Assembly: GCA_025829515.1 (NCBI GenBank)
Contig: GCA_025829515.1_4865.1
Length of the DNA stretch: 64,000 bases
Direction: 5' to 3' (one strand)
Source: a phage
Position numbers and translations under genes: made by a program. The notes under the pieces are model-generated. The model was given only the letters and a program-made list of their open reading frames with translations, did not search any database and was not told the DNA's origin. Of the stretch, positions 4,767 to 63,780 are shown in pieces. Every line of letters begins with the position of its first letter. Position 1 is the first letter of the stretch.

Positions 4767-4810
4767 GGCCCGCCTCCTTGCCCACGGGTGAGGAGGTCCC
4801 TTTTTATTTA
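4767..4810 (+). terminator. intrinsic terminator
   Basis: cctcc...ggagg hairpin followed by tcccttttta ttt. Confidence 0.6.
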
Positions 4811-4862
4811 CATCAGTCCACTAACTTATGTGAAACAACCCACGTAATGAGGAATTAAGAGA

Positions 4863-5180
4863 ATGTGGTTAAGTGCTATTCATCGTGACCTGCCAAAACG
4901 TGAAGTGACTCTTTCTGTCGATGCGGAACCGATTACCGTTGGTGTCGCTAACTTCGACCGTATGGAAGAAGGGCAGTATGTCGTGGTGGACAACGATGAA
5001 AACGAATTCATGTTATTCCATCCCGAAGTTGATGCGTCTGAAATCCGCGAGGGTTCTATCTTGTTTTCTTGGCAAGACAAAGAAACTAAACAGTGGATGT
5101 GGTGCGTTGCTAACACAACCAATGAAAAAGGTACCGCGTATGCCCCAGGACAGCTTCATGTCGAACCTAAACCCCATTGA
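4863..5180 (+). CDS. hypothetical protein
   Basis: 105-aa ORF with gagg SD. Confidence 0.45.
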   Translation: MWLSAIHRDLPKREVTLSVDAEPITVGVANFDRMEEGQYVVVDNDENEFMLFHPEVDASEIREGSILFSWQDKETKQWMWCVANTTNEKGTAYAPGQLHVEPKPH

Positions 5181-5480: not shown

Positions 5481-5510
5481 TTTTCAGATAGATGTTATTT
5501 TACTGAACCT
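5481..5510 (+). promoter_or_regulatory. conserved intergenic motif copy 1 (TTTCAGATAGATGTTAT-n3-ACTGAACCT)
   Basis: near-identical copies at 13885-13914 and 17652-17682, each just upstream of a gene. Confidence 0.5.
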
Positions 5511-5842: not shown

Positions 5843-5888
5843 AGTCCCCTACCTAACTTCGGTTAGGTAGGGCTCTTTTTATTTTTAA
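5843..5888 (+). terminator. intrinsic terminator
   Basis: cccctacctaac-ttcg-gttaggtaggg perfect hairpin followed by ctctttttattttt. Confidence 0.85.
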
Positions 5889-7556: not shown

Positions 7557-7765
7557 TGAATCTACGTTGGCCGATCGTGGCTGCTGTGTTGTTTTGTATT
7601 TATATCGCCATCAGCACCAGTACCCGCACTGCAGAACGTCGCGAGACCGCAACCAGTACGTTCAGAATGTGCATTGACCGCATAGACCCGAACAGCACCA
7701 CTTATCCTGACGCGGTGAATGCGTGCCGTAAAGCAGTTGCTGAGATATTGAAAGAGGAAAATTAA
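7556..7765 (+). CDS. small putative membrane protein
   Basis: 69 aa; hydrophobic N-terminal segment WPIVAAVLFCIYIAIST; start overlaps upstream stop. Confidence 0.4.
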   Translation: MNLRWPIVAAVLFCIYIAISTSTRTAERRETATSTFRMCIDRIDPNSTTYPDAVNACRKAVAEILKEEN

Positions 7766-7992
7766 TGGAAAACCTCACACCGATTGAGATAGTGTCGCCA
7801 TTCGACCGTTACGTATATGGACAAACGCAAGCAAAGAAAATGCTGGCGATTGCGCTACGTAATCGATATCGTGCCAACAAACTCAACGTAGTGGACCGTA
7901 TGTCGGTCCACAAACAGAACCTTTTAATAGAAGGTCCAACAGGCACGGGTAAAATGGCGCTGATGCGTGAAGAAAAACAGAAACAAAAGTGA
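7765..7992 (+). CDS. HslU (ClpY)-like AAA+ ATPase N-terminal fragment, 75 aa
   Basis: TPIEIVSPFDRYVYGQTQAKKMLAIALRNRYRANKL...NLLIEGPTGTGK is collinear with the E. coli HslU N-terminus through Walker A; own aagagga SD; ends in a Lys-rich tail. Confidence 0.7.
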   Translation: MENLTPIEIVSPFDRYVYGQTQAKKMLAIALRNRYRANKLNVVDRMSVHKQNLLIEGPTGTGKMALMREEKQKQK

Positions 7993-9743: not shown

Positions 9744-9755
9744 CACCGTACGAGT

Positions 9756-9800
9756 AGGCTACCACACGATCATATGTGTGGTAGCTTATTTTTTTTGTTT
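9756..9800 (+). terminator. intrinsic terminator
   Basis: gctaccacac...gtgtggtagc hairpin followed by ttattttttttg. Confidence 0.75.
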
Positions 9801-13840: not shown

Positions 13841-13841
13841 G

Positions 13842-13885
13842 TGTATACCAGCTATCCTTCGGGGTGGCTGGTACGCTTTATTTTA
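13842..13885 (+). terminator. intrinsic terminator
   Basis: imperfect accagc...gctggt hairpin followed by gctttattttattt. Confidence 0.55.
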
Positions 13886-13914
13886 TTTCAGATAGATGTT
13901 ATCTCAGTGAACCT
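13885..13914 (+). promoter_or_regulatory. conserved intergenic motif copy 2 (TTTCAGATAGATGTTAT-n3-AGTGAACCT)
   Basis: 17/17 identity to copy 1 in the core; lies between a terminator and the next gene. Confidence 0.5.
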
Positions 13915-13967
13915 CTGAAATTTACGTTTCAATCAGAGCTTATGTCATGTATTAAGGAGCACTTAAA

Positions 13968-17036: not shown

Positions 17037-17113
17037 ATTAGAGGTTGGCAGGCTGTTCGTTAATCCTTAAAAGCAACAGTTTCAAATTAGTTACGACCAT
17101 AAGGAGTATTAAA

Positions 17114-17591: not shown

Positions 17592-17633
17592 AGCACCCTA
17601 CTCCTTCGGGAGTAGGGTTTCTTCTTTTTTTGT
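17592..17633 (+). terminator. intrinsic terminator
   Basis: caccctactcc-ttcg-ggagtagggtt hairpin followed by tcttcttttttt. Confidence 0.85.
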
Positions 17634-41304: not shown

Positions 41305-41362
41305 GGTAAATAAAGCCCTTACCCACTCCCCTTACGGGAGTGGGTAAGCATTATTTATTTTC
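41305..41362. terminator. bidirectional intrinsic terminator between convergent genes
   Basis: cttacccactcc...ggagtgggtaag hairpin flanked by an A-tract on one side and a T-tract on the other. Confidence 0.7.
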
Positions 41363-41842
41363 TTCTAACGGAACAATCGTAATCGGAGTAGGAACTTCAC
41401 CGATAAACCCGCTGCTGCAGCGAAAGAATGTCATCCCTTTACCTTCGCCGGTATACGGGTTCACATCCGAAAAAGAGTAAGTGGGGCTATCGTTTACGGT
41501 TTTATTAATACGGTAATAACGCTCACCTGTGGTGGTGTTAACATTCCCGTCGATTTTGCCAATTGTATCTTTAAACATCATCGGTGACTCTAGTTTGCCA
41601 CCGTCCCACGTTGCTACCCAGTTTGCACCCACATCCATTACTGTTACTGACCGCGGCATCATCTGTAGATTGTCCAGAACCGGACGGTAGTCTATAAACT
41701 TCTCCTGCGTCCCTGTGCATGTATAAATCACCAAGTCGTGATTCTTTACTGGTGTGGCGCTAAATTGTCCTATGTTGCTTGGCGACTGAACACAACCGGC
41801 CAACAGGTTTATAATCGCGAGTACGATAAATAGACGTTTCAT
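41351..41842 (-). CDS. lipoprotein (signal peptide plus lipobox LLAGC)
   Basis: MKRLFIVLAIINLLAGC; lone minus-strand gene between two bidirectional terminators. Confidence 0.7.
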   Translation of the reverse strand: MKRLFIVLAIINLLAGCVQSPSNIGQFSATPVKNHDLVIYTCTGTQEKFIDYRPVLDNLQMMPRSVTVMDVGANWVATWDGGKLESPMMFKDTIGKIDGNVNTTTGERYYRINKTVNDSPTYSFSDVNPYTGEGKGMTFFRCSSGFIGEVPTPITIVPLEENK

Positions 41843-41966
41843 AGAGTACCTTTCAGTGGTAAAAAAATTTCTCGTTTAACAGCCAACTTTACTGTCATAT
41901 TAAGCCCACTATGTTGTTTTTAGAACGATTTAGTATGCACCACAAACCTACTATAAGGAAACAACC

Positions 41967-42518: not shown

Positions 42519-42574
42519 AAATAAATAAAAGGTACCTACCTCCCTTCGGGGAGGTAGGGCCTTTATTTTCTTTG
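42519..42574. terminator. bidirectional intrinsic terminator
   Basis: cctacctccc-ttcg-gggaggtagg hairpin with A-run upstream and T-run downstream. Confidence 0.8.
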
Positions 42575-43247: not shown

Positions 43248-43789
43248 TCGTCCTCCTCAATCAGGCCAAGTTCTAACAACAAACCGAAGTCCAGCATCTG
43301 GAAGTCCTGATCGAGGTTACCGGCCCACAACAGAGAAATGTTGTGTTGCTCTTCTTCTTCCAACTGCGGGAGCAGGTGTTCTTCGAAGATTTGACGCTCT
43401 GTGTAATAAGCGTCAACCGGGTTATTGGAGCGTAAGTTACGAATACGCATCCGCGGGAAAGACAAGCCCAAAGCCACTAAACTTTCAGGACTGGCTTCAT
43501 CAATAGAGTGACGTAGCAGTTCGATTTTGTGGCGTGGGTATGCAAGCAGTCGCTTCTCAAAGCCAGGGTTGCGCTTTTCGATTTCCGCGACAGACTCGTG
43601 TCCTTTCTCAACGCAGTAGACCGGGATCATCACGTTCAGCCCGTATTTAATCAACAGGCTTTGGATTTCATCAGTGAAGTCTTCCCCTGCCACAATTGCG
43701 TGCACATTGTACAGCTTGCTTTTGCGCAGGAAGCGATCGACCAAGTGCAGTTTACGCTTCGTAAAATTGTGAATCAGTATTGACTTCAT
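43223..43789 (-). CDS. hypothetical protein
   Basis: start trimmed to ATG at 43789 (GGAG SD); overlaps the upstream radical SAM gene by 38 nt. Confidence 0.5.
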   Translation of the reverse strand: MKSILIHNFTKRKLHLVDRFLRKSKLYNVHAIVAGEDFTDEIQSLLIKYGLNVMIPVYCVEKGHESVAEIEKRNPGFEKRLLAYPRHKIELLRHSIDEASPESLVALGLSFPRMRIRNLRSNNPVDAYYTERQIFEEHLLPQLEEEEQHNISLLWAGNLDQDFQMLDFGLLLELGLIEEDECLLLTKA

Positions 43790-45080
43790 TCTGGGCTCCG
43801 TTTTGTAATTTTTCTGCTTCGGCACGTTGGCGTACACAACGTGAACAATAGCACATGGATTTATCATGCAAATCTGATGCGCGAGTCGTACCAGTTTTCT
43901 GATACCAATATTCCGCCGCCATCAGCTTCGCAGTAGTCCAACCACACTGACGACGCTCGGCGTGATACGCTTTACGGTCTTCCAGTGTACCTTCACCGTT
44001 TTCGTACGATGCTGCTGCGCAGCTACCGCAGCTGTGTTTCATCGGACACCCTAAACAGGTTTCTGGGTAGTTGGTGTACTGCGTTTGAATCTCTTCTAAC
44101 AGCTTACCGCCGTCCAGGCTCACAAACTCACGACCAACCAGTTCCGCTACAGCAGAGCGGGAAGTTACCGTGGACATGAAACGGTTACAACCGTAAATCT
44201 TGCGATCAAAGCCGAGACAGGTCATGTGCGTCAACGTACCGCAGTACGGTTTCAGGCGTTCTGGGTCGAGACGAACAGAGTCGTCATGTAAGAGTTTGTC
44301 ACGCCAATCCGGGTCCCAAGTTGCCATAAAGTTCAGGCCATCCGGGATGATGTGTGTAATCGTGTTACGCGGGTTGGTGTGCAGACCCTTCTCAATCCAG
44401 TAGTCCATCACGTCCATCATCTGGTTCGCGATATCCAACGCCATATGGCGCGGCAGGATATCTTCGTACGTTACGTTACCAGAGATGGTACCACCGCCGG
44501 ACATGTCAATTAACGATTTCATGCTGGCGGCATAGTGCGGCAATGTATCGATCGTAAACGTCGCCTTTACGCCCAGCTCAGCGATGCCAACACTCTTCAG
44601 ATAATTGTAACCGCGTACCGCAGCTTCGTACGACCCTTCACGCGTCGTGGTAAAGATACGATATTTGTCATGGACTTCAGGTAAACCATCGATGGAGACC
44701 CCAATAGACAGTTTGTCTTTCCAGCGCTCGATAATTTCTTTGTTCAGCGGACGGTCCAGAAGCGTACCGTTCGTGGAGATACTGAACATATACGGGCGAT
44801 TGTGTTCTGCGCATAACTTCTCTGCGGTTTCAAAGGCCGCCAAAAGAAGTTTAGGCTGCATGAACGGCTCACCACCGATGATATCGATGATGACTTCAAC
44901 GTTCGGGATATCTTTATCACGCTCGAAACAAGCGTGGATAAAATCAATCACGTCTGCTACTTTGTTGTTACGCGGATATTTACGCTCGTAGCAGTATTCG
45001 CAGTCCAGGTTACATGACAGGTTAGTCACAACCTGATACGTGCGTGGTGTGTACTGGATTTGCTGTTCGCTATTACTCAT
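43752..45080 (-). CDS. radical SAM enzyme with SPASM/twitch-type Cys-rich C-terminal domain
   Basis: CNLDCEYC (CX3CX2C), IIGGEPFM, TNGTLL, C-terminal cysteines CGTLTHMTC...CNRF...CLGCPMKHSCGSCAA; ATG overlaps upstream stop. Confidence 0.8.
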   Translation of the reverse strand: MSNSEQQIQYTPRTYQVVTNLSCNLDCEYCYERKYPRNNKVADVIDFIHACFERDKDIPNVEVIIDIIGGEPFMQPKLLLAAFETAEKLCAEHNRPYMFSISTNGTLLDRPLNKEIIERWKDKLSIGVSIDGLPEVHDKYRIFTTTREGSYEAAVRGYNYLKSVGIAELGVKATFTIDTLPHYAASMKSLIDMSGGGTISGNVTYEDILPRHMALDIANQMMDVMDYWIEKGLHTNPRNTITHIIPDGLNFMATWDPDWRDKLLHDDSVRLDPERLKPYCGTLTHMTCLGFDRKIYGCNRFMSTVTSRSAVAELVGREFVSLDGGKLLEEIQTQYTNYPETCLGCPMKHSCGSCAAASYENGEGTLEDRKAYHAERRQCGWTTAKLMAAEYWYQKTGTTRASDLHDKSMCYCSRCVRQRAEAEKLQNGAQNEVNTDSQFYEA

Positions 45081-45987
45081 TGTTCGCCGCCCGTTTACGC
45101 TTAGCAGAAATTACACGGTTGATGTAGTTATACGCATCAACGCCGATAGAACGCGCCAGGCGATTACAGCCGACTTCCAATATCTCTGGGGCGTTCTGAA
45201 TTTGCTCCTGCGTACCGTCGGCGTTAAGCCACAGCACTTCACTGCACGTGTTGCACTCGGTATCGAACATTTTACTGATCGCAAGCCCACATTCAGAATC
45301 GTTCTGCATGTTAAGGCGTTCGATATTGTCGAGTATTTTCCAATACCCGTACATGAAGTTCATGACGTGGTCTGGCGATAACGGTTTCGGCATCATCGCA
45401 TCAAACAACAACGACACACCACCTGGACGGTAATGATAGATTGCTCGGTGCAGCTCGATGAAATCTTCGTACCAGCGTTTATCACCTAACTGGTCACGCG
45501 TCATCACACCCCAGGTGTAATAGTTGTCCAGCTCGTACAGCACTTCCAGCGCTTCGTGATTACCACCGTTTACAAAGTTCATAAACGGACGTTCCGACTT
45601 CTTGTAGCCGTCAATGGACACAAAGATAAGGTCGAACTGTTTCAGCAACGGCAGATGTGACTTACGCATCTTTAAACCGTTGGTGTACATGTGATGACGG
45701 AGGTTCGGATGAGACTCCTTCAACTCGTTCACGAAGTCTTCAATCTTACGCTGCGCTAACAGCGGCTCACCGCCCGTCCAATGAATCTCACCGATATCCG
45801 GATTCTTCTCTAAAATAGAGAGAATCTCTTCACGTTGAAACTCACGAGAAGTATCTTCTCTATCCATGTAATAAGCCCCTCCACAGAAGCTACAGTCTAA
45901 GTTACACTTAGAAGTTGCGACAACCGACAGAATTGACGGTTTGTCGTACAGTTCAGACGAGATCCTGGATTCTACTTGATCTGTCAT
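45073..45987 (-). CDS. radical SAM enzyme
   Basis: CNLDCSFCGG (CX3CX2C), IHWTGGEPLL; start trimmed to ATG at 45987 (GGAG SD). Confidence 0.75.
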   Translation of the reverse strand: MTDQVESRISSELYDKPSILSVVATSKCNLDCSFCGGAYYMDREDTSREFQREEILSILEKNPDIGEIHWTGGEPLLAQRKIEDFVNELKESHPNLRHHMYTNGLKMRKSHLPLLKQFDLIFVSIDGYKKSERPFMNFVNGGNHEALEVLYELDNYYTWGVMTRDQLGDKRWYEDFIELHRAIYHYRPGGVSLLFDAMMPKPLSPDHVMNFMYGYWKILDNIERLNMQNDSECGLAISKMFDTECNTCSEVLWLNADGTQEQIQNAPEILEVGCNRLARSIGVDAYNYINRVISAKRKRAANNE

Positions 45988-46009
45988 TGCAGGTTGCTCC
46001 AGTATATTT

Positions 46010-46897
46010 TTAAATATAATCAATGGCGAATAAAGGATCTTCGTCTACATTAGCGCCGGGCACCAGTAACATCGGGTCGTGATAGGCAGCTAAAATTTTG
46101 TTCAGGTCGGCGTGTCTTTCGTTCAGGCGTTTCAAATCGGCCAACGTTACCGAACGACCACGAATCTCAGAAACAGCTTCTGCTTCTTCTTTCGTTAAAT
46201 CCACCTTCGTTAAGAGGAAACTTACCAGCTTACTCAAATCCGCTTCCGTCGCCGGATAATCCCCATATCGGGTTTGAACCAGATGTTGCATCCACGGTTT
46301 ACGAATACGTTTGGTGATTTCAAAATCGTCAGTCAACGCATACCAGACAGAACGCTTTTTATCCCACACGAACTTATAGCTATACGCCATCATGTCCGCT
46401 AAACGGGTGATGCCAAGTTCTTTATACCCCTCGATATCGATGTATGGTTCGGTGTCGAAATACGTTTCCGTATCGGCAGGTACCAGTACAAAGTAGTAAG
46501 GGAACGAGCCCAGATAGTCCGGACTCCACCAACGGCGCGCCATCGGTTTTGCTTCAAGTTCGTCAAACGGTGTAAACATCAGTTCTAAATCGACGCTGTT
46601 GTTCAAAATCCCTTCACTGAAGAAATACTTACCGTCGACTAACACGCCACGAGAGTTACCATCGCCGTTAAAGATAACGATGGCCTCTGCAACCATATCA
46701 CGGATCTTAAACGTATTTTCTACGGTGTAGTTCTTCTTGTCGGTCAAGAAGCGACCACGAACCTTTGGCCACTCACCAGGAATCTGTGCAATCAGTCTGA
46801 CTTTGTCAGCAAGGTGCGCACGCACTGAATCTGGGGAAGATAGATGCAGCGGGTGGTTGAATGTGGTTTTATACGCAAGATGCAAATCGTTTTTCAT
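46010..46897 (-). CDS. hypothetical protein (295 aa) between the peptides and the radical SAM genes
   Basis: GGAG SD; no recognisable motif. Confidence 0.55.
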   Translation of the reverse strand: MKNDLHLAYKTTFNHPLHLSSPDSVRAHLADKVRLIAQIPGEWPKVRGRFLTDKKNYTVENTFKIRDMVAEAIVIFNGDGNSRGVLVDGKYFFSEGILNNSVDLELMFTPFDELEAKPMARRWWSPDYLGSFPYYFVLVPADTETYFDTEPYIDIEGYKELGITRLADMMAYSYKFVWDKKRSVWYALTDDFEITKRIRKPWMQHLVQTRYGDYPATEADLSKLVSFLLTKVDLTKEEAEAVSEIRGRSVTLADLKRLNERHADLNKILAAYHDPMLLVPGANVDEDPLFAIDYI

Positions 46898-46919
46898 TTA
46901 ATACTCCGAACGTTTTCTG

Positions 46920-47126
46920 TTATCGATTCCCCGCTCCACGGCTACAGCTTCCGCTGCAGGACCAGCTACACCCACCATTACAGTTATAGTGAGAAAGCGG
47001 TAAGCCAGCCAGGTTATTTGTGGTCGACACGGTGCCCTGGTTAGCGATATAGTTGTTTGCCTGTGCGGTTGTAATGTAACCTTCTGCCGTAACGAGACGG
47101 TTTCGAATAGTCTTGAGACTGATCAC
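46920..47126 (-). CDS. Cys-rich peptide 3 (68 aa): shared leader plus one C-X3-C cluster
   Basis: GTG start after GGAGG; leader MISLKTIRNRL...NN.AG; core CNGGCSWSCSGSCS. Confidence 0.6.
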   Translation of the reverse strand: MISLKTIRNRLVTAEGYITTAQANNYIANQGTVSTTNNLAGLPLSHYNCNGGCSWSCSGSCSRGAGNR

Positions 47127-47141
47127 ATAAGCCTCCGTCAG

Positions 47142-47546
47142 TTAGGAGTTAGGACCTGAACAACCACCAGAGCACGCACCTGAGCAGTTTGCGGAGCAGG
47201 ATTTACCACAACCCCCAGAACAGCTGCCTGTGCACGTGCCGCTACAACCACCAGAGCACGAAGAGCTACAGCCCGTGCAGCTGCTGCTACAGCCTGATAC
47301 ACAGTTTGCCGAGCAAGTCGACCCACAACCACCTGTCGCGGACCCTGTGCAGCCGCCAGAGCAACTTGAGCAGCTAAAAGAGCATGTCCCACCACAGTCA
47401 TAGTGCGAACGGCCTTGACCTGCGAACAAGTCGGCGTTATTCGTAGCTTTATTGCGAATGTAGTTTTGCACATTCGTGGTGTTCTTTAAAGCGTTTGCAT
47501 CGATCGTGTTTAATCGGTTATTCAGTTCTTTTAATCCAATTGCCAT
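47142..47546 (-). CDS. Cys-rich peptide 2 (134 aa): leader plus about 80-aa (C-X3)n Cys/Ser/Gly core
   Basis: AAGGGGGA SD; leader MAIGLKELNNRL...NNADLFAGQGRSHYDCGGTCS; core of CSGG/CSSS/CTGS repeats. Confidence 0.65.
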   Translation of the reverse strand: MAIGLKELNNRLNTIDANALKNTTNVQNYIRNKATNNADLFAGQGRSHYDCGGTCSFSCSSCSGGCTGSATGGCGSTCSANCVSGCSSSCTGCSSSCSGGCSGTCTGSCSGGCGKSCSANCSGACSGGCSGPNS

Positions 47547-47556
47547 TTAATCCCCC

Positions 47557-47949
47557 TTAGCGACCTGAACAGCCGCCGGAGCAGGCCCCGGAACAACTGG
47601 AAGAACATGAGCCACCGCAACCACCAGTGCAGTTACCGGTACAGCTACTACTGCAACCACCAGAACAACCAGAGCAACCAGAACAGTTACCGCCACACGT
47701 CGAAGAACAGCTACCGATGCAAGAAGCAGAACAGCTTCCTGAACAGCTCGAACAACCGTGAGAACAGCCATTCGAACACGTCCAAGAACATGTCCCGCCG
47801 CAATCTAGCTGTGCTTTCGTCCAACCCCCAAATCGGTCTGCCGCATTATGGGCTTTAGAGGCCACTTGCGCGTCGATGCGGGGGCCTGTCGCCATGTTAG
47901 CTTCGACTATCTGGACGCGGTTTCTGACGTCTTTAATAGATATCGCCAT
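47557..47949 (-). CDS. Cys-rich peptide 1 (130 aa): leader plus (C-X3)n core with 21 Cys
   Basis: AAGGAA SD; leader MAISIKDVRNRV...HNAADRFGGWTKAQLDCGGTCS; core CSWTCSNGCSHGCSSCSGSCSASC... Confidence 0.65.
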   Translation of the reverse strand: MAISIKDVRNRVQIVEANMATGPRIDAQVASKAHNAADRFGGWTKAQLDCGGTCSWTCSNGCSHGCSSCSGSCSASCIGSCSSTCGGNCSGCSGCSGGCSSSCTGNCTGGCGGSCSSSCSGACSGGCSGR

Positions 47950-47969
47950 TACGCTTCCTTAAAAAGTAG

Positions 47970-48005
47970 AACGAGCGGACTATGTCCATAAACATAGTCC
48001 GGCTC
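47970..48005 (-). promoter_or_regulatory. intercistronic stem-loop between the fibre-like gene and the first Cys-rich peptide gene
   Basis: about 12-bp near-perfect stem GAGCCGGACTATG...CATAGTCCGCTC followed by a short T-rich stretch, then SD and ATG. Confidence 0.5.
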
Positions 48006-48014
48006 GTAAACAAA

Positions 48015-49217
48015 TTACTTAGTACCCGCTTCAGCTTGAACATCGTCGCGCGTGGTGAGGTTGTTGTTGACGTGAACAGCAGCCTGCACAACACCTCCAT
48101 ACTGTTTATGGAGGTAATTCGGGTGTGGGTTATCCGCAGCCGCATGGTTCGCCAGATTCTGGTTTGCCTGCGAAATTGCGTTGGTGTTGTTTATAACCTG
48201 AGTTTTAAGACTGTTGATTTGTCCTTGCAGGTTATCAATTTGCTGTTGGAAGTCCTTGCCCTGATTCTCAAGATCCGTGACGCGCTGATTTGTTTCATTC
48301 AGTGCAGACTGCAGATCGTTAACCATCTTCTGTAATTGCAACACCAGAGAATTAAGGTTAGCTAATGCTAACGACATTTTCTGGTAATTTTGAGCAACCA
48401 CATTAAGCTGGTCGTTCCACGCGGCTAACGAAGCCACAATTGCATCGATGCGTTTCCCCAACGCCGTGTCTGCTGCTCTTAAGTCGCCGATATCGTTGAT
48501 AGTGGCGTCAATGGCAGTCTGTACACTTTGAATCAGGGCACGAATCTCCGTCTCCGTCAGGCCATTAACCTGATGAATGTCGAGATTGTGTACGTTACCT
48601 TCGGCGTTGATGTGTGTATTTAAGGCGTCGAGGAAGTCGTTTCTCAGACCGTCCAGAATACCTTTAATTTCTTCCAGCTGTACTGCAGAGCCGGAGTTAA
48701 TCGCATCTTTAATCCCCGCGAGTACGGTAATGATATACTCAAAACCGTAGATATCGCCAAGGTCTTTATACGTCGGGGCGGACGGGAACGTATCGGGTAC
48801 GTTTCGAAGATCCTTGAAGTCCACCACACGGTCTTCAATTTTCAACGACGCAATCGCTTGTCGGATACCTTCGACGTTCGCGGACTGAAAACCACCAACG
48901 ACTTGCGCAGAGACTTCGATATCAGTAGGAATGGCCGAGTTAGTTACCACCACACCCATGACCACTTCGCGGTTCTTGGTCATTTTCTGATATGCAGTAT
49001 GTGCAAAAATCAGTTCGTAGTCTGTGCCGCGTTTGTACGGGTAGACACCTGGTTTATTCGCAGCTGCCAAGCGGAAGGTATCCGCGTAGAAAGCTCCGTC
49101 AGGAAAAGCAAAAGCCCGGTTAACTTTACCAGAACCTAACGTAATACGCCGTGTAACGGCGTTCGACGTTAATGTCCCGGTAAGGTCGAGCGGGTACTGA
49201 TGAATGATTTCGGCCAT
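48015..49217 (-). CDS. tail-fibre-associated coiled-coil protein
   Basis: start trimmed to ATG at 49217 (AGGAG SD); N-terminal domain shared with the three large fibre proteins; long heptad-rich C-terminal half. Confidence 0.6.
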   Translation of the reverse strand: MAEIIHQYPLDLTGTLTSNAVTRRITLGSGKVNRAFAFPDGAFYADTFRLAAANKPGVYPYKRGTDYELIFAHTAYQKMTKNREVVMGVVVTNSAIPTDIEVSAQVVGGFQSANVEGIRQAIASLKIEDRVVDFKDLRNVPDTFPSAPTYKDLGDIYGFEYIITVLAGIKDAINSGSAVQLEEIKGILDGLRNDFLDALNTHINAEGNVHNLDIHQVNGLTETEIRALIQSVQTAIDATINDIGDLRAADTALGKRIDAIVASLAAWNDQLNVVAQNYQKMSLALANLNSLVLQLQKMVNDLQSALNETNQRVTDLENQGKDFQQQIDNLQGQINSLKTQVINNTNAISQANQNLANHAAADNPHPNYLHKQYGGVVQAAVHVNNNLTTRDDVQAEAGTK

Positions 49218-49264
49218 TGCCAAACTCCTTTGATTGGGGCTTCCTTGCCCCATAGCGCTATCTG

Positions 49265-52200
49265 TTAGGTACGGAACATAAGATTGACCTGGATAATATC
49301 AGGCTGTTGACGTCCTCTCTCGTTCACCCAATCGTGCGCAATCGTTAACGTAAGATCATCGCCATCCCACGCCACGATCGGTGGTGGGAATAAACCCTGA
49401 GCGCCCGTGGTAACAACCGGGATTGCACCCGTCACATTCGTAAACGTGTAGCTACGACTGTTCAGAACAACTGGTGTGCCGTTGGTCTCTCCCGGCTGTG
49501 GTAAGATTTGAATCTTACTATCCGAAAGATCGGTGGTGATTGGTAGACCCCCAGCGTCCGTGAAAAGCCAAGAGCAAATATGCTGGTTAGCTGTTTCGAG
49601 CGCTGAAGAACTTACCGCCGCGACAAATGTAAAGGTGCACGGCACGCCTGCTGGCAGAGAGTGCTGTTTGTGGTGCACGGTATGTGGTGACGGCAATAAC
49701 ACTTCTGGATTTTCATCAATGTTAACATCCGTACCTTCCGCCTCGACGTTGTAGAAAAAGCCATCCACCGCCTCCCATGGGGCAACGTGAACATTAAAGG
49801 TCGTTTCTACTCCCGGTGTACCTGGGACGACGAATTTACTTTGCACCACCACCATCAAGTTCGTTGAGGTCGGTGAGAAAGCGGGCGTTGGAATACCTAC
49901 CCACTCCATGCCCAACGATGTCGCTTCACTGTTCTCATCGGCCGTTACCGTCGCAATTGTTGTAGGATGTTTCCAAAACGCCCCCGACTTGTTTGCCTGA
50001 GTAAACGCCGGCAAAGTTTTCAAGCCTTCGAAACGTTTGGACACCATCGCTTTACCGCGACGCTGTGCGTCAGATACGGTATAAAGCAACTGACTATCCA
50101 GATAGCCTTTCGTAGCATCGATCGACAAAGGACCCATCGCTTCTTTACGCAATGGTGCCAGTCTGCCCGTTGCTGCATCCCTTCCCACCTCCACATCATG
50201 CTTATTCTCAACCGCCGCATGTTCCAACAGTTGTTTCACCGCCCCTAATCGCTTAGCATGTTCGACGTTAGTCTCGACGACTCGCGACGAGCCCGTTTTA
50301 ACATACCCGATATAGAGTTCCGTTTCAGTGTCTGGATGTTGAATCACGTCCATTACGTACTTCGGTGTACCATTTTCTACCTTGGCGTGCAGGTAGAATG
50401 TCCGGTTCTGATGGTTTGTTGGAAATGCTGCGCTGAGGTCAATATACCACGTAGGCAGTTTATAAGTGCTCGAGCCGAAACGCAGGTTAACTTCCTCAGT
50501 CACATATACCAGCCAACCTTCGGCTGTTTCCACACCAGCAATGACAACCGATTCAGTCGGGCCACTAAAATTAGGAGCCGCGACAAAATCACTCGACGAC
50601 ATTGCGATACCACCACAATAGACGTAGTCGAGAGATGAGTTGTGTAGCATCACCTGATCACGATGAGCCAGATAAGCTGGGCTGACTGGGGTGTGGGATG
50701 GTGCCATACGTCCAATGCCGTGTGGAGCAGAAGAACGCGTCCAGGTACCGTTAGACAGCGTAAGACCAACACCGTAGTTAAGCGCACCCAAGTCGCCAAT
50801 TTGGCGCAAGGTTAACGTGTGTGGAAGATACAACCCGAACTGAGTACCATCTACTGACACCAGTGTAGGTTGTCCCGGCCGGCGTGTTTTTCCTCCCGTT
50901 ATCTCGCCCAACGTAGCATAACTCAAGCCATAGTCGAGGTTGTTATAGAAGTCAAACAGTGCCAATATCGCTGCGGGGAATGTTACCTGCCCGTTGCTGA
51001 TCGTTGGTTTCAGTGTAAAGTAGTAGATATCCAACACATTAACATTGTTCACAGTACGCATACATGCTACTTGTGCTAACGTGAGCGGTGTGGCCGTACC
51101 AATGCCGATGAACCAAATGGAGAACAGTGCCTTTCCGGCGTTATTTGCGGCAAGGATAAATTCCGAAGCATAACCATTCGCAGCGCCAGCCGGTGCACCG
51201 TCGATGATCATCTGCTTCATCTTATCCCATTCGGCTTGTGACAGCGTCAACCGATCGGCATGAATCGTGAAAGTGCCAGAAACGTTGTGGTAAGGGAATG
51301 TTTCTGGTCCTGTGCAATACCAGCCGTTTAACTCTGTACCAGGCGACGCCGGTGTAACAATGTGGCACATCTGCGACAGATTCTCGTACGTGGTAGAATC
51401 TACTACACGACGATTGTTAGTTGGGCCATACCCCGCCTTACCTGAGTAAGTGGTGTTCGGATCAAACTCAACTTCAATTGCCAAACGGGTACGCGGCTGT
51501 GACAACCAGATAAGTCTGGAATTCGCTCCCAGAGTCAGCGGATACGCCATACCTAGCTCGTAGATAGAACCACGACCTTGGTTTAACATTACCGCACTAA
51601 AACTTCTGGCAGTGAAGTTGTAGTCGCACGACAGGTACTCGTACCAACTCACACCGTCGTCTAACGTTGTAATCGTGACATAAGGCATTAGGTCGCGATC
51701 GTTTGCATGTCCTTGCGAAACGATATACTTGTCTTGCGATGTTGCAAAGGTTCGGTTATTAGCTTGACCTTCGCCCCACTTCCGGCTCGGAATCCCAATC
51801 TCAGCGCCACCGTTATAACGAACCGTGGTAAGATCGGCCACGATAGGGAATCGATCGGCACCTTCCAGCGTTACCGTCATTGAACCGCAATCAACAACAA
51901 AGCTTGACACCCATTGTTTAAAGTTAATAGTTTGCCCTGTAGTAGAAGCAAACCAGACTGTTGGCGTTAAACCAACACGAAAGTTCAGCCCATCCACAGC
52001 AATCGCGTGATTACATTCCGGACCATGGACGAAATTTCGCGCACTATTCCACTTCGCCGATGCGTCTGCGTAGATTTGTGTTACTGGCGCTACCAACACA
52101 TCTGTATCAGAACGTTTCTGACCCTGACGCAAGTAGATATTATCTCCCGACGTTAACATCCCACCTGTTAACACATCCGCCACAAACGTGTTGCTACCAC

Positions 52201-54448: not shown

Positions 54449-54493
54449 TGCAAACACTCCTAATCTGTAATAAAACGGAGACCGCCCTCCCAA

Positions 54494-54543
54494 TAACGGA
54501 AGGGCGGTTTACCTACGGACTACCCGCCCGTAGGCAGTCCGTC
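54494..54543 (-). promoter_or_regulatory. structured intergenic region between fibre genes
   Basis: two adjacent GC-rich hairpins (ccgccctcc...ggaagggcgg; cctacgg...ccgtagg). Confidence 0.4.
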
Positions 54544-63730: not shown

Positions 63731-63780
63731 AAGGTAAACCCTACTCCCATTGGGAGTAGGGTACCTATATCTTTTTTGCC
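63731..63780. terminator. bidirectional intrinsic terminator
   Basis: ccctactccc-attg-ggagtaggg hairpin with T-runs on both strands. Confidence 0.8.

Follow-up and report, generated by a model that had tools for sequence, protein, structure and literature searches.

The 65-nt spacer that separates a tail-fibre operon from a block of Cys-rich peptide and radical-SAM genes in an SPN3US-like phage may well carry two signals in one. We propose with middling confidence that a conserved terminator-like hairpin and a phiKZ-type TTAC-N15-TATG promoter are interleaved in it, transcription starting in the loop of the hairpin. Each component is of a known kind, and the hairpin alone is ordinary. What is new is the nested arrangement and a strictly spaced motif that can be detected in the sequence.

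The window, that is the whole stretch of 64,000 nucleotides analysed here, corresponds to Salmonella phage SPN3US and its close relatives (Seoulvirus), with 97-98% identity over 2.5 kb around the spacer. SPN3US is a phiKZ-like jumbo phage with multisubunit RNA polymerases of its own and belongs with phiKZ to the same nucleus-forming, RNAP-encoding group. Several genes are annotated as 'RNA polymerase beta subunit' in SPN3US, in keeping with a phage-encoded multisubunit non-virion RNAP; none of them lies inside the window. The spacer (47950-48014) extends from the TAA of a 400-aa fibre-like gene to the ATG of a 130-aa Cys-rich ORF. Its parts and the neighbouring genes, all on the minus strand, are as follows.

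62400-48015, minus strand: tail-fibre operon, the genes upstream of the spacer (ORF list)
62400-49265, minus strand: three large virion/fibre proteins ahead of the 400-aa gene (ORF list, SPN3US annotation)
48015-49217, minus strand: upstream gene, 400-aa coiled-coil virion/fibre-like protein (ORF list; SPN3US ACQ60_gp099, 'virion structural protein')
48017-48015, minus strand: TAA stop of the 400-aa fibre-like gene (ORF list)
48005-48010, minus strand: upstream promoter-like box TTTACG, with TTAC at 48009-48006 and its 'AC' invariant in 22/22 sequences
47991-48007, minus strand: hairpin 5' arm ACGAGC-C-GGACTATGTT with C48001 bulged (folds; clade comparison)
47987-47990, minus strand: hairpin loop TATG (22/22 distinct relatives)
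47971-47986, minus strand: hairpin 3' arm GACATAGTCC-GCTCGT (folds)
47961-47971, minus strand: T-rich tail TTCTACTTTTT, 6 T in the best 8-nt window
47955-47960, minus strand: Shine-Dalgarno-like AAGGAA, 5 nt ahead of the ATG, its AAGG invariant in all relatives
47557-47949, minus strand: Cys-rich peptide 1 of 130 aa, which opens the peptide and radical-SAM block (ORF list)
47142-47546, minus strand: Cys-rich ORF 2, 134 aa (ORF list)
46920-47126, minus strand: Cys-rich ORF 3, 68 aa (ORF list)

The Pfam matches of the 400-aa protein were to coiled-coil families and all sub-threshold. A 295-aa protein and then two radical-SAM enzymes (PF04055) are encoded downstream of the three Cys-rich ORFs. 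The N-terminus of Cys-rich peptide 1 is kept in all relatives.

On the minus strand the spacer reads TTTGTTTAC GAGCCGGACTATGTT TATG GACATAGTCCGCTCGT TCTACTTTTT AAGGAA GCGTA ATG. The initial annotation had placed a near-perfect inverted repeat of roughly 12 bp here. Its position was confirmed by folding, while its length had to be corrected: ACGAGC, the bulged C48001 and GGACUAUGUU face GACAUAGUCC-GCUCGU in a stem of 16 bp that extends from 48007 to 47971, with a single bulge and the loop UAUG (47990-47987). A 45-nt segment folded with a minimum free energy of -23.7 kcal/mol compared to -7.4 ± 2.6 kcal/mol for shuffled sequences (z = -6.3), and none of 200 shuffles was as low. The score was -7.5 for a 41-nt window around the hairpin and ranged from -6.3 to -7.8 over the analyses. 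It was only -2.3 for a 91-nt fold because the flanks dilute the signal. Thus, the coding strand holds a stable RNA stem-loop of the sort found in intrinsic terminators. With its perfect core of 10 bp, the stem belongs to a set of 11 perfect hairpins of this length or longer in the window; Markov resamples gave 0.53 ± 0.71. Folded as DNA, either strand gives a stable hairpin of about -15 kcal/mol. An RNA starting at G47987, on the other hand, reached -9.1 kcal/mol with z = 0.02 and hence no significant structure. Rfam gave no match at E ≤ 1 on either strand of 46800-49300.

The T-rich stretch (47971-47961), AAGGAA (47960-47955) and the ATG follow the stem as had been described. The T5 run begins 5 nt past the full stem and 7 nt past the 12-bp repeat of the initial annotation, which is why a simple terminator scan did not call the hairpin. 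A simple scan for sigma-70 promoters and terminators likewise returned nothing at the hairpin site; sigma-70 promoters are not expected in this phage group. An intrinsic terminator is expected to have its U-tract 0-2 nt past the stem; the tail here, UCUACUUUUU, has 6 T in its best 8-nt window. Stronger tails than this were found in relatives (TTTTTTATT, ATTTTTTTATT), and in Erskine- and Machinavirus a run of T6-7 (TTTTTTATT) follows the stem directly. In Derbicusvirus the hairpin is kept and the T tail is absent.

Hairpins with T-rich or TTAT-containing tails are the dominant intergenic element of SPN3US. Its genome has 53-54 intergenic hairpins of at least 9 pairs, for the most part with (C)TTCG(G) loops between C-rich arms. 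Of 53 intergenic hairpins, 37 are followed within 15 nt by an 8-nt window containing 6 or more T, compared to 7 of 88 inside genes. The tail of the spacer hairpin (6/8) lies at the low end among the intergenic hairpins of the phage, and its stem is more AT-rich than those of the canonical C-rich, TTCG-loop terminators. Judged by these other intergenic hairpins, the second signal in the spacer, beside the promoter motif, is probably a terminator-like hairpin. Members of the canonical class in the window are located at 430-455, 5847-5872, 17595-17618, 41318-41348, 42535-42558 and 63738-63762, among others. Their layout is a CCTAC(C/T)CCC-like arm, a TTCG-type loop, a G-rich arm, a short spacer and a T-run or TTTAT, and they are often bidirectional between convergent genes.

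In phiKZ, terminators consist of a hairpin followed by a TTAT-containing tail (PMC10914365), and ONT-cappable-seq of phiKZ and 201phi2-1 gave CCYCCCC-HWWD-GGGRRGG and then YTTATKYYGT for intrinsic terminators (PMC10914365, PMC11512511). The spacer resembles them in having an intergenic stem-loop just past a stop codon, a short spacer and a T-rich tail. TTAT occurs in the tail of most relatives (CTTATTTATT, TTTTTTATTC, GTCTTATTA), within 12 nt of the stem in 15 of 22, as in phiKZ terminators, whereas the tail in the window (CTACTTTTT) lacks it. The C-rich and G-rich arms of the phiKZ consensus are not present either, since the arms GAGCCGGACTATGTT and GACATAGTCCGCTC are more AT-rich and bulged, and the invariant TATG stands where phiKZ terminators have a free 4-nt loop. 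Other hairpins of the window do fit the phiKZ motif, e.g. CCTACCTCCC-TTCG-GGGAGGTAGG at 42535-42558.

Orthologues of the spacer were collected from 13 GenBank phages and 17 IMG/VR contigs and yielded 22 distinct sequences, covering Seoulvirus, Erskinevirus, Machinavirus, Wellingtonvirus, Derbicusvirus and metagenomic lineages, with identities of the flanking fibre-like protein down to 46%. All 22 fold into a hairpin at the corresponding position (free energies from -13 to -26 kcal/mol; z from -2.7 to -7.9), with stems of 11-14 bp in the relatives. The arm sequences are clade-specific (GAGCCGGACTATG, GAGGAGAGTCATG, AGGAGGAACTATGC, GAGGACCTGTC, ACGGGCCTCGTC, GGGCGTTACTC), and their complementarity is kept. 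Three blocks are invariant in 22 of 22 sequences while the arms vary, namely AAGG of the ribosome-binding site, TATG of the loop and the 'AC' of TTAC just 5' of the arm.

The co-evolution of the arms was seen in an alignment-free arm-swap test, in which native hairpins had a mean of -20.0 kcal/mol and chimeras of 5' and 3' arms from different clades -11.1 ± 3.7 kcal/mol. Stable chimeras came only from clades with common arm sequences. Between the window and the Seoulvirus pEa29, four double transitions preserve pairs within 8 bp, with near-identical flanks. RNAalifold on a MAFFT alignment of the 22 spacers returned no consensus pairs. A covariance model with one fixed 11-pair structure had 71% of cells paired, with no excess over shuffles or slid partners and no significant column-wise covariation. 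This single-consensus test failed because the position of the bulge and the register differ between clades. In 19 of 22 sequences, G.U pairs make the fold of the sense strand better than that of the antisense strand. This bias lends modest support to an RNA-level structure on the coding strand, modest because only about six lineages are independent.

The promoter-like signal is of a kind known from phiKZ, whose promoters were described by Ceyssens 2014, Yakunina 2015 (PMC4666361) and de Martin Garrido 2026 (PMC12809450). The non-virion RNAP (nvRNAP) of phiKZ needs 5'-TATG-3' with the G as +1 (PMC4666361). This motif is essential for the enzyme (PMC4666361; PMC12809450) and is read on the single-stranded non-template strand by a beta-like subunit (PMC12809450). 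The box of phiKZ middle promoters is AAanTTACc near -24, and a subset of these promoters has TATG at the start site (PMC4666361). For late promoters the 4-nt TATG is the only firm determinant, and additional ones are undefined (PMC4666361, PMC12809450). A review from 2020 regarded the middle and late promoters of these phages as not predictable by bioinformatics (PMC7598289).

With G47987 as the predicted +1, a start derived from the TATG motif of phiKZ, TTAC at 48009-48006 occupies -22 to -19 and lies 15 nt upstream of the loop TATG. G47987 corresponds to SPN3US 144258. The spacer thus has a TATG at the putative start site and a TTAC box at a fixed distance, as phiKZ-like middle promoters do. 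The gap is 15 nt in all named and metagenomic clades except Wellingtonvirus (16 nt). The -22 box is degenerate at this locus, with AAAC in Erskinevirus and TAAC in Derbicusvirus. As in phiKZ middle promoters, a TTAC-containing A/T-rich box precedes TATG by about two helical turns, although it stands at -22 to -19 here and at roughly -24 to -21 in phiKZ. The loop TATG is found 38 nt upstream of the peptide-1 ATG and at other motif sites the distance is 18-163 nt. A TATG 18-160 nt ahead of genes is a feature in common with the phiKZ promoters, as is a non-conserved sequence between the two boxes. The spacing in the SPN3US-like phages is strict and detectable from sequence alone, whereas phiKZ-type middle and late promoters had been called unpredictable (PMC7598289).

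In the window, TTAC-N15-TATG occurs eight times compared to 2.0 ± 1.4 expected, and none of 100 shuffles reached eight. A spacing of N16 occurs once (2.1 expected). The whole SPN3US genome was assembled from six pieces and spacings from 8 to 24 were compared. N15 gave 24 matches, while the other spacings gave 1-8 (mean 4.3; Poisson P about 4e-11). Half of the 24 matches are intergenic in a genome that is 6% intergenic, and ten are found 5-150 nt ahead of a gene start on the same strand, as defined by a rough purpose-made ORF caller. The consensus is WWWTTTACR-N14-TATG. About 14 copies in SPN3US are gene-proximal, the spacer site included; other sites of the motif are SPN3US 57144, 64412, 92595, 109947 and 187607, for example. 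In 100 kb of Erwinia phage Asesino (Erskinevirus) N15 was also the top spacing (6 vs 2.2; P about 0.02), an enrichment that is weak when taken alone. All six Asesino sites are orthologous to SPN3US sites and have kept the boxes while the spacers diverged, and the window site at 13922-13944 has the same footprint in SPAsTU, pEa29 and Asesino. The motif is therefore conserved across genera. Since the genes downstream of motif sites are mostly non-structural or hypothetical, we infer a 'middle-like' class.

Most motif sites have z near 0. About ten of the 14 SPN3US sites and most Asesino sites are unstructured, and the spacer locus is the extreme among them (z = -7.8). Therefore, the hairpin is not a general component of the promoter and seems to be a second signal overlaid at this locus. 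As an obligatory promoter part it was rejected on these grounds and because phiKZ p119L has, by inspection, no obvious inverted repeat around TATG. A repeated family of TATG-loop hairpins was rejected as well, with four in the window compared to 3.4 ± 2.2 in resamples and three among 54 intergenic SPN3US hairpins.

Further intergenic copies of the motif are located at 4808-4830 and 13922-13944 on the plus strand and at 41840-41862 on the minus strand. Each of the first two comes after a terminator hairpin and ahead of a gene (at 4978 and 13968, respectively). The modules to which they belong (4767-4977 and 13841-13967) have the same parts in the same order as the spacer, i.e. stop codon, hairpin, T-rich tail, TTTAC box, 15 nt, TATG, ribosome-binding site and gene. 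There, each part follows the last over 127-211 nt and the T tail leads into TTTAC, whereas they are interleaved within 65 nt in the spacer. In the copy at 41840-41862 a gp107-like gene is predicted to have its start codon at the ATG within TATG, and the same applies to SPN3US 173097 and its Asesino ortholog. TATG doubling as a start codon would imply a leaderless mRNA or a start site other than the G. Another site, SPN3US 72661 (72640-72680), is found outside the window between the major head gene and gp190. Its hairpin GGGCAC-TGGG-TATG-AACCC-GTGCCC is centred on TATG (z = -3.3) and has no T tail. In the Asesino ortholog the arms differ and the fold is weaker (z = -2.4). When relatives of the gp190 locus were sought, only SPN3US itself was returned. 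The blastn matches there stop short of spanning the intergenic region.

We propose that two signals read by the phage's own RNA polymerase are interleaved in the spacer, and from the sequence we infer a promoter with +1 at the G, termination by the hairpin and the identity of this polymerase. Read-through RNA from the tail-fibre operon would fold the 16-bp hairpin with its T-rich tail, and the folded structure would function as a terminator or attenuator of the intrinsic type or, at the minimum, as a 3'-end hairpin. The same DNA would serve as a 'middle-like' phiKZ-type promoter with TTAC at -22 to -19 and TATG at -3 to +1. Initiation would take place at G47987 in the hairpin loop, 38 nt ahead of the peptide-1 ATG, and the 3' arm would become +2 to +17 of the new transcript. 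The arms would thereby occupy the unconstrained promoter spacer (-20 to -4) and the initial transcribed region (+2 to +17), with the constrained TATG in the loop, where pairing imposes nothing, so that the two codes would avoid collision. A transcript begun in the loop would lack the 5' arm; it could therefore not form the terminator and would escape it. A promoter-like motif nested in a hairpin has not been reported for phiKZ in the literature covered. The searched literature contained no transcript maps and no 5' or 3' ends for SPN3US-like phages.

The element could also be a plain intrinsic terminator or 3'-end stabilising hairpin of the fibre operon, with the downstream genes served by read-through and TATG and TTAC kept for other causes such as loop stability or terminator efficiency. 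The T-rich tail, the position right after the stop codon, the co-evolving arms and the better folding of the sense strand agree with this, as does the prevalence of hairpins with T-rich or TTAT tails between genes in this phage and in phiKZ. However, terminator loops are not normally invariant, yet TATG is kept in 22 of 22 sequences while the stems change, and the canonical terminators of the phage carry (C)TTCG(G)-type loops instead. Moreover, a plain terminator does not account for a motif with a fixed 15-nt gap that is enriched genome-wide and mostly at hairpin-free sites. We regard it as unlikely, though worth serious consideration. The partial terminator suggested by the initial annotation is in part borne out by the position after the stop codon, the arm co-evolution, the G.U sense bias in 19 of 22 sequences and a tail like those of other intergenic hairpins, but it was incomplete in that the conserved promoter-like TTAC-N15-TATG had been missed. 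The same annotation had considered an RNA processing element, for which no support was found. Typical RNase III substrates are longer than a 16-bp stem, and stems of 16 bp here and 11-14 bp in the relatives fall below that length. A processing site for RNase III or RNase E that parts fibre mRNA from peptide mRNA would suit a conserved intercistronic stem-loop with an internal bulge and an AU-rich region past the stem. Nevertheless, it would leave the fixed TTAC-N15-TATG spacing and the unstructured motif sites unexplained, Rfam offered no match, and we judge it very improbable. Still less credible, to the point of being hardly worth entertaining, is a short uORF opened by the loop ATG (18 codons in the window) that overlaps the start of peptide 1 and serves to couple or regulate translation of this peptide. 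The loop has a conserved ATG(G), and the ORF of the window ends at TAA 47935-47933 just inside peptide 1. On the other hand, no Shine-Dalgarno sequence precedes the loop ATG in the window, the ATG would be buried in or beside a stable stem, and the length and sequence of the ORF vary, with about 8 codons in Machinavirus and 17 in Erskinevirus.

Conversely, the spacer might be a promoter only, in which the inverted repeat acts at the DNA level in initiation (strand opening, cruciform extrusion) or as a regulator site and does not terminate transcripts from upstream. The Derbicusvirus hairpin without T tail, the tail-less TATG-centred hairpin at SPN3US 72661 with its Asesino ortholog and the stability of the DNA hairpin on both strands are consistent with this. 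So is the behaviour of phiKZ nvRNAP, which binds TATG in single-stranded form and whose late promoters have further determinants that are undefined (PMC4666361, PMC12809450). Set against it are the unstructured majority of promoter-like sites in SPN3US and Asesino, phiKZ p119L, the G.U pairs that favour the sense RNA and the canonical T-run directly after the stem in most relatives. Arm sequences that change freely argue against a sequence-specific protein operator. Altogether we consider a promoter without termination quite unlikely.

That the inverted repeat aids initiation at the DNA level is improbable in our view, and this reading is kept alive by the AT-rich stem, the weak tail, the missing T tail in Derbicusvirus and the hairpin at SPN3US 72661. 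In its specific form, negative supercoiling would extrude the inverted repeat or let it breathe and present TATG single-stranded to the beta-like subunit of nvRNAP, which we hold to be decidedly improbable. If true, it would be a structure-assisted promoter of a multisubunit phage RNAP and an example of the 'missing determinant' through which a 4-nt motif gains its specificity. The promoters of coliphage N4 virion RNAP, a single-subunit enzyme, have stems of 5-7 bp and loops of 3 nt, with the start downstream of the hairpin. By analogy only, the spacer is like them in that a promoter-specifying sequence lies within or beside an inverted-repeat loop, and a supercoiling-driven extrusion that exposes single-stranded recognition bases is possible on this model. 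Unlike in N4, the stem has 11-16 bp (16 bp in the window, with a 4-nt loop), transcription would start within the loop, a hairpin is absent from most sites of the motif and the polymerase is of another family. The short stem, 3-nt loop and single-subunit polymerase of an N4-type DNA hairpin promoter are thus absent.

Returning to the interleaved terminator and promoter, the design would be compact, with the terminator of one operon and the start of the next within 40 nt. If the promoter is real, the peptides and radical-SAM enzymes would be expressed largely from separate initiation and not from read-through alone. The sequence suggests that the block is expressed as a unit of its own and not as the tail of the fibre operon. 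Beyond this locus, the nvRNAP promoters of nucleus-forming jumbo phages are poorly defined, and the motif provides about 14 promoter candidates in SPN3US.

The Cys-rich, 295-aa and radical-SAM genes form a block at 43752-47949 (minus strand) that is present in all five genera. The three Cys-rich ORFs (130, 134 and 68 aa) are paralogous, with a common N-terminus (MAISIKDV..., MAIGLKEL..., MISLKTIRN...) and long CSGxCS-type repeats. The block looks like a RiPP-like precursor-plus-maturase layout within the tail-fibre region of a jumbo phage. Peptides 1 and 3 are unannotated in the SPN3US RefSeq record, and SPN3US gp100 (47138-47473) and peptide 2 are read in different frames. No description of the block was found in a literature search.

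A 13-bp hairpin on the plus strand at 9755-9788, TAGGCTACCACAC-GATCATAT-GTGTGGTAGCTTA, has TATG at the junction of loop and 3' arm and is followed by T8, a ribosome-binding site and the gene of a gp144-like virion protein (9813). Stem, TATG and T-run are kept in pEa29 and Asesino, but a TTAC box at -22 is lacking. This could be another terminator into which a late-type (TATG-only) start is embedded. On the minus strand, two adjoining strong hairpins with about -52 kcal/mol over 107 nt were found at 54449-54543 between gp097-like and gp098-like fibre genes, the second one followed by TCTCCGTTTTATTAC. Such an arrangement resembles a tandem terminator or attenuator within the fibre operon.

By megablast, the window is not collinear with SPN3US at 1-943, 7807-7961 and 17037-17097, where offsets and unaligned segments occur. 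A 75-aa ORF (7765-7992) with a 10-bp hairpin and a TATGT loop at 7889-7913 lies in such a region. Finally, AGATAGATGTTATYT occurs twice on the plus strand (5486-5500 and 13890-13904) compared to 0.02 expected, each time intergenic and between a terminator and a TTAC-N15-TATG site. It is kept in SPAsTU, pEa29 and Asesino and present near SPN3US 72700 too, which makes it a candidate for an early (virion RNAP) promoter or another regulatory site.
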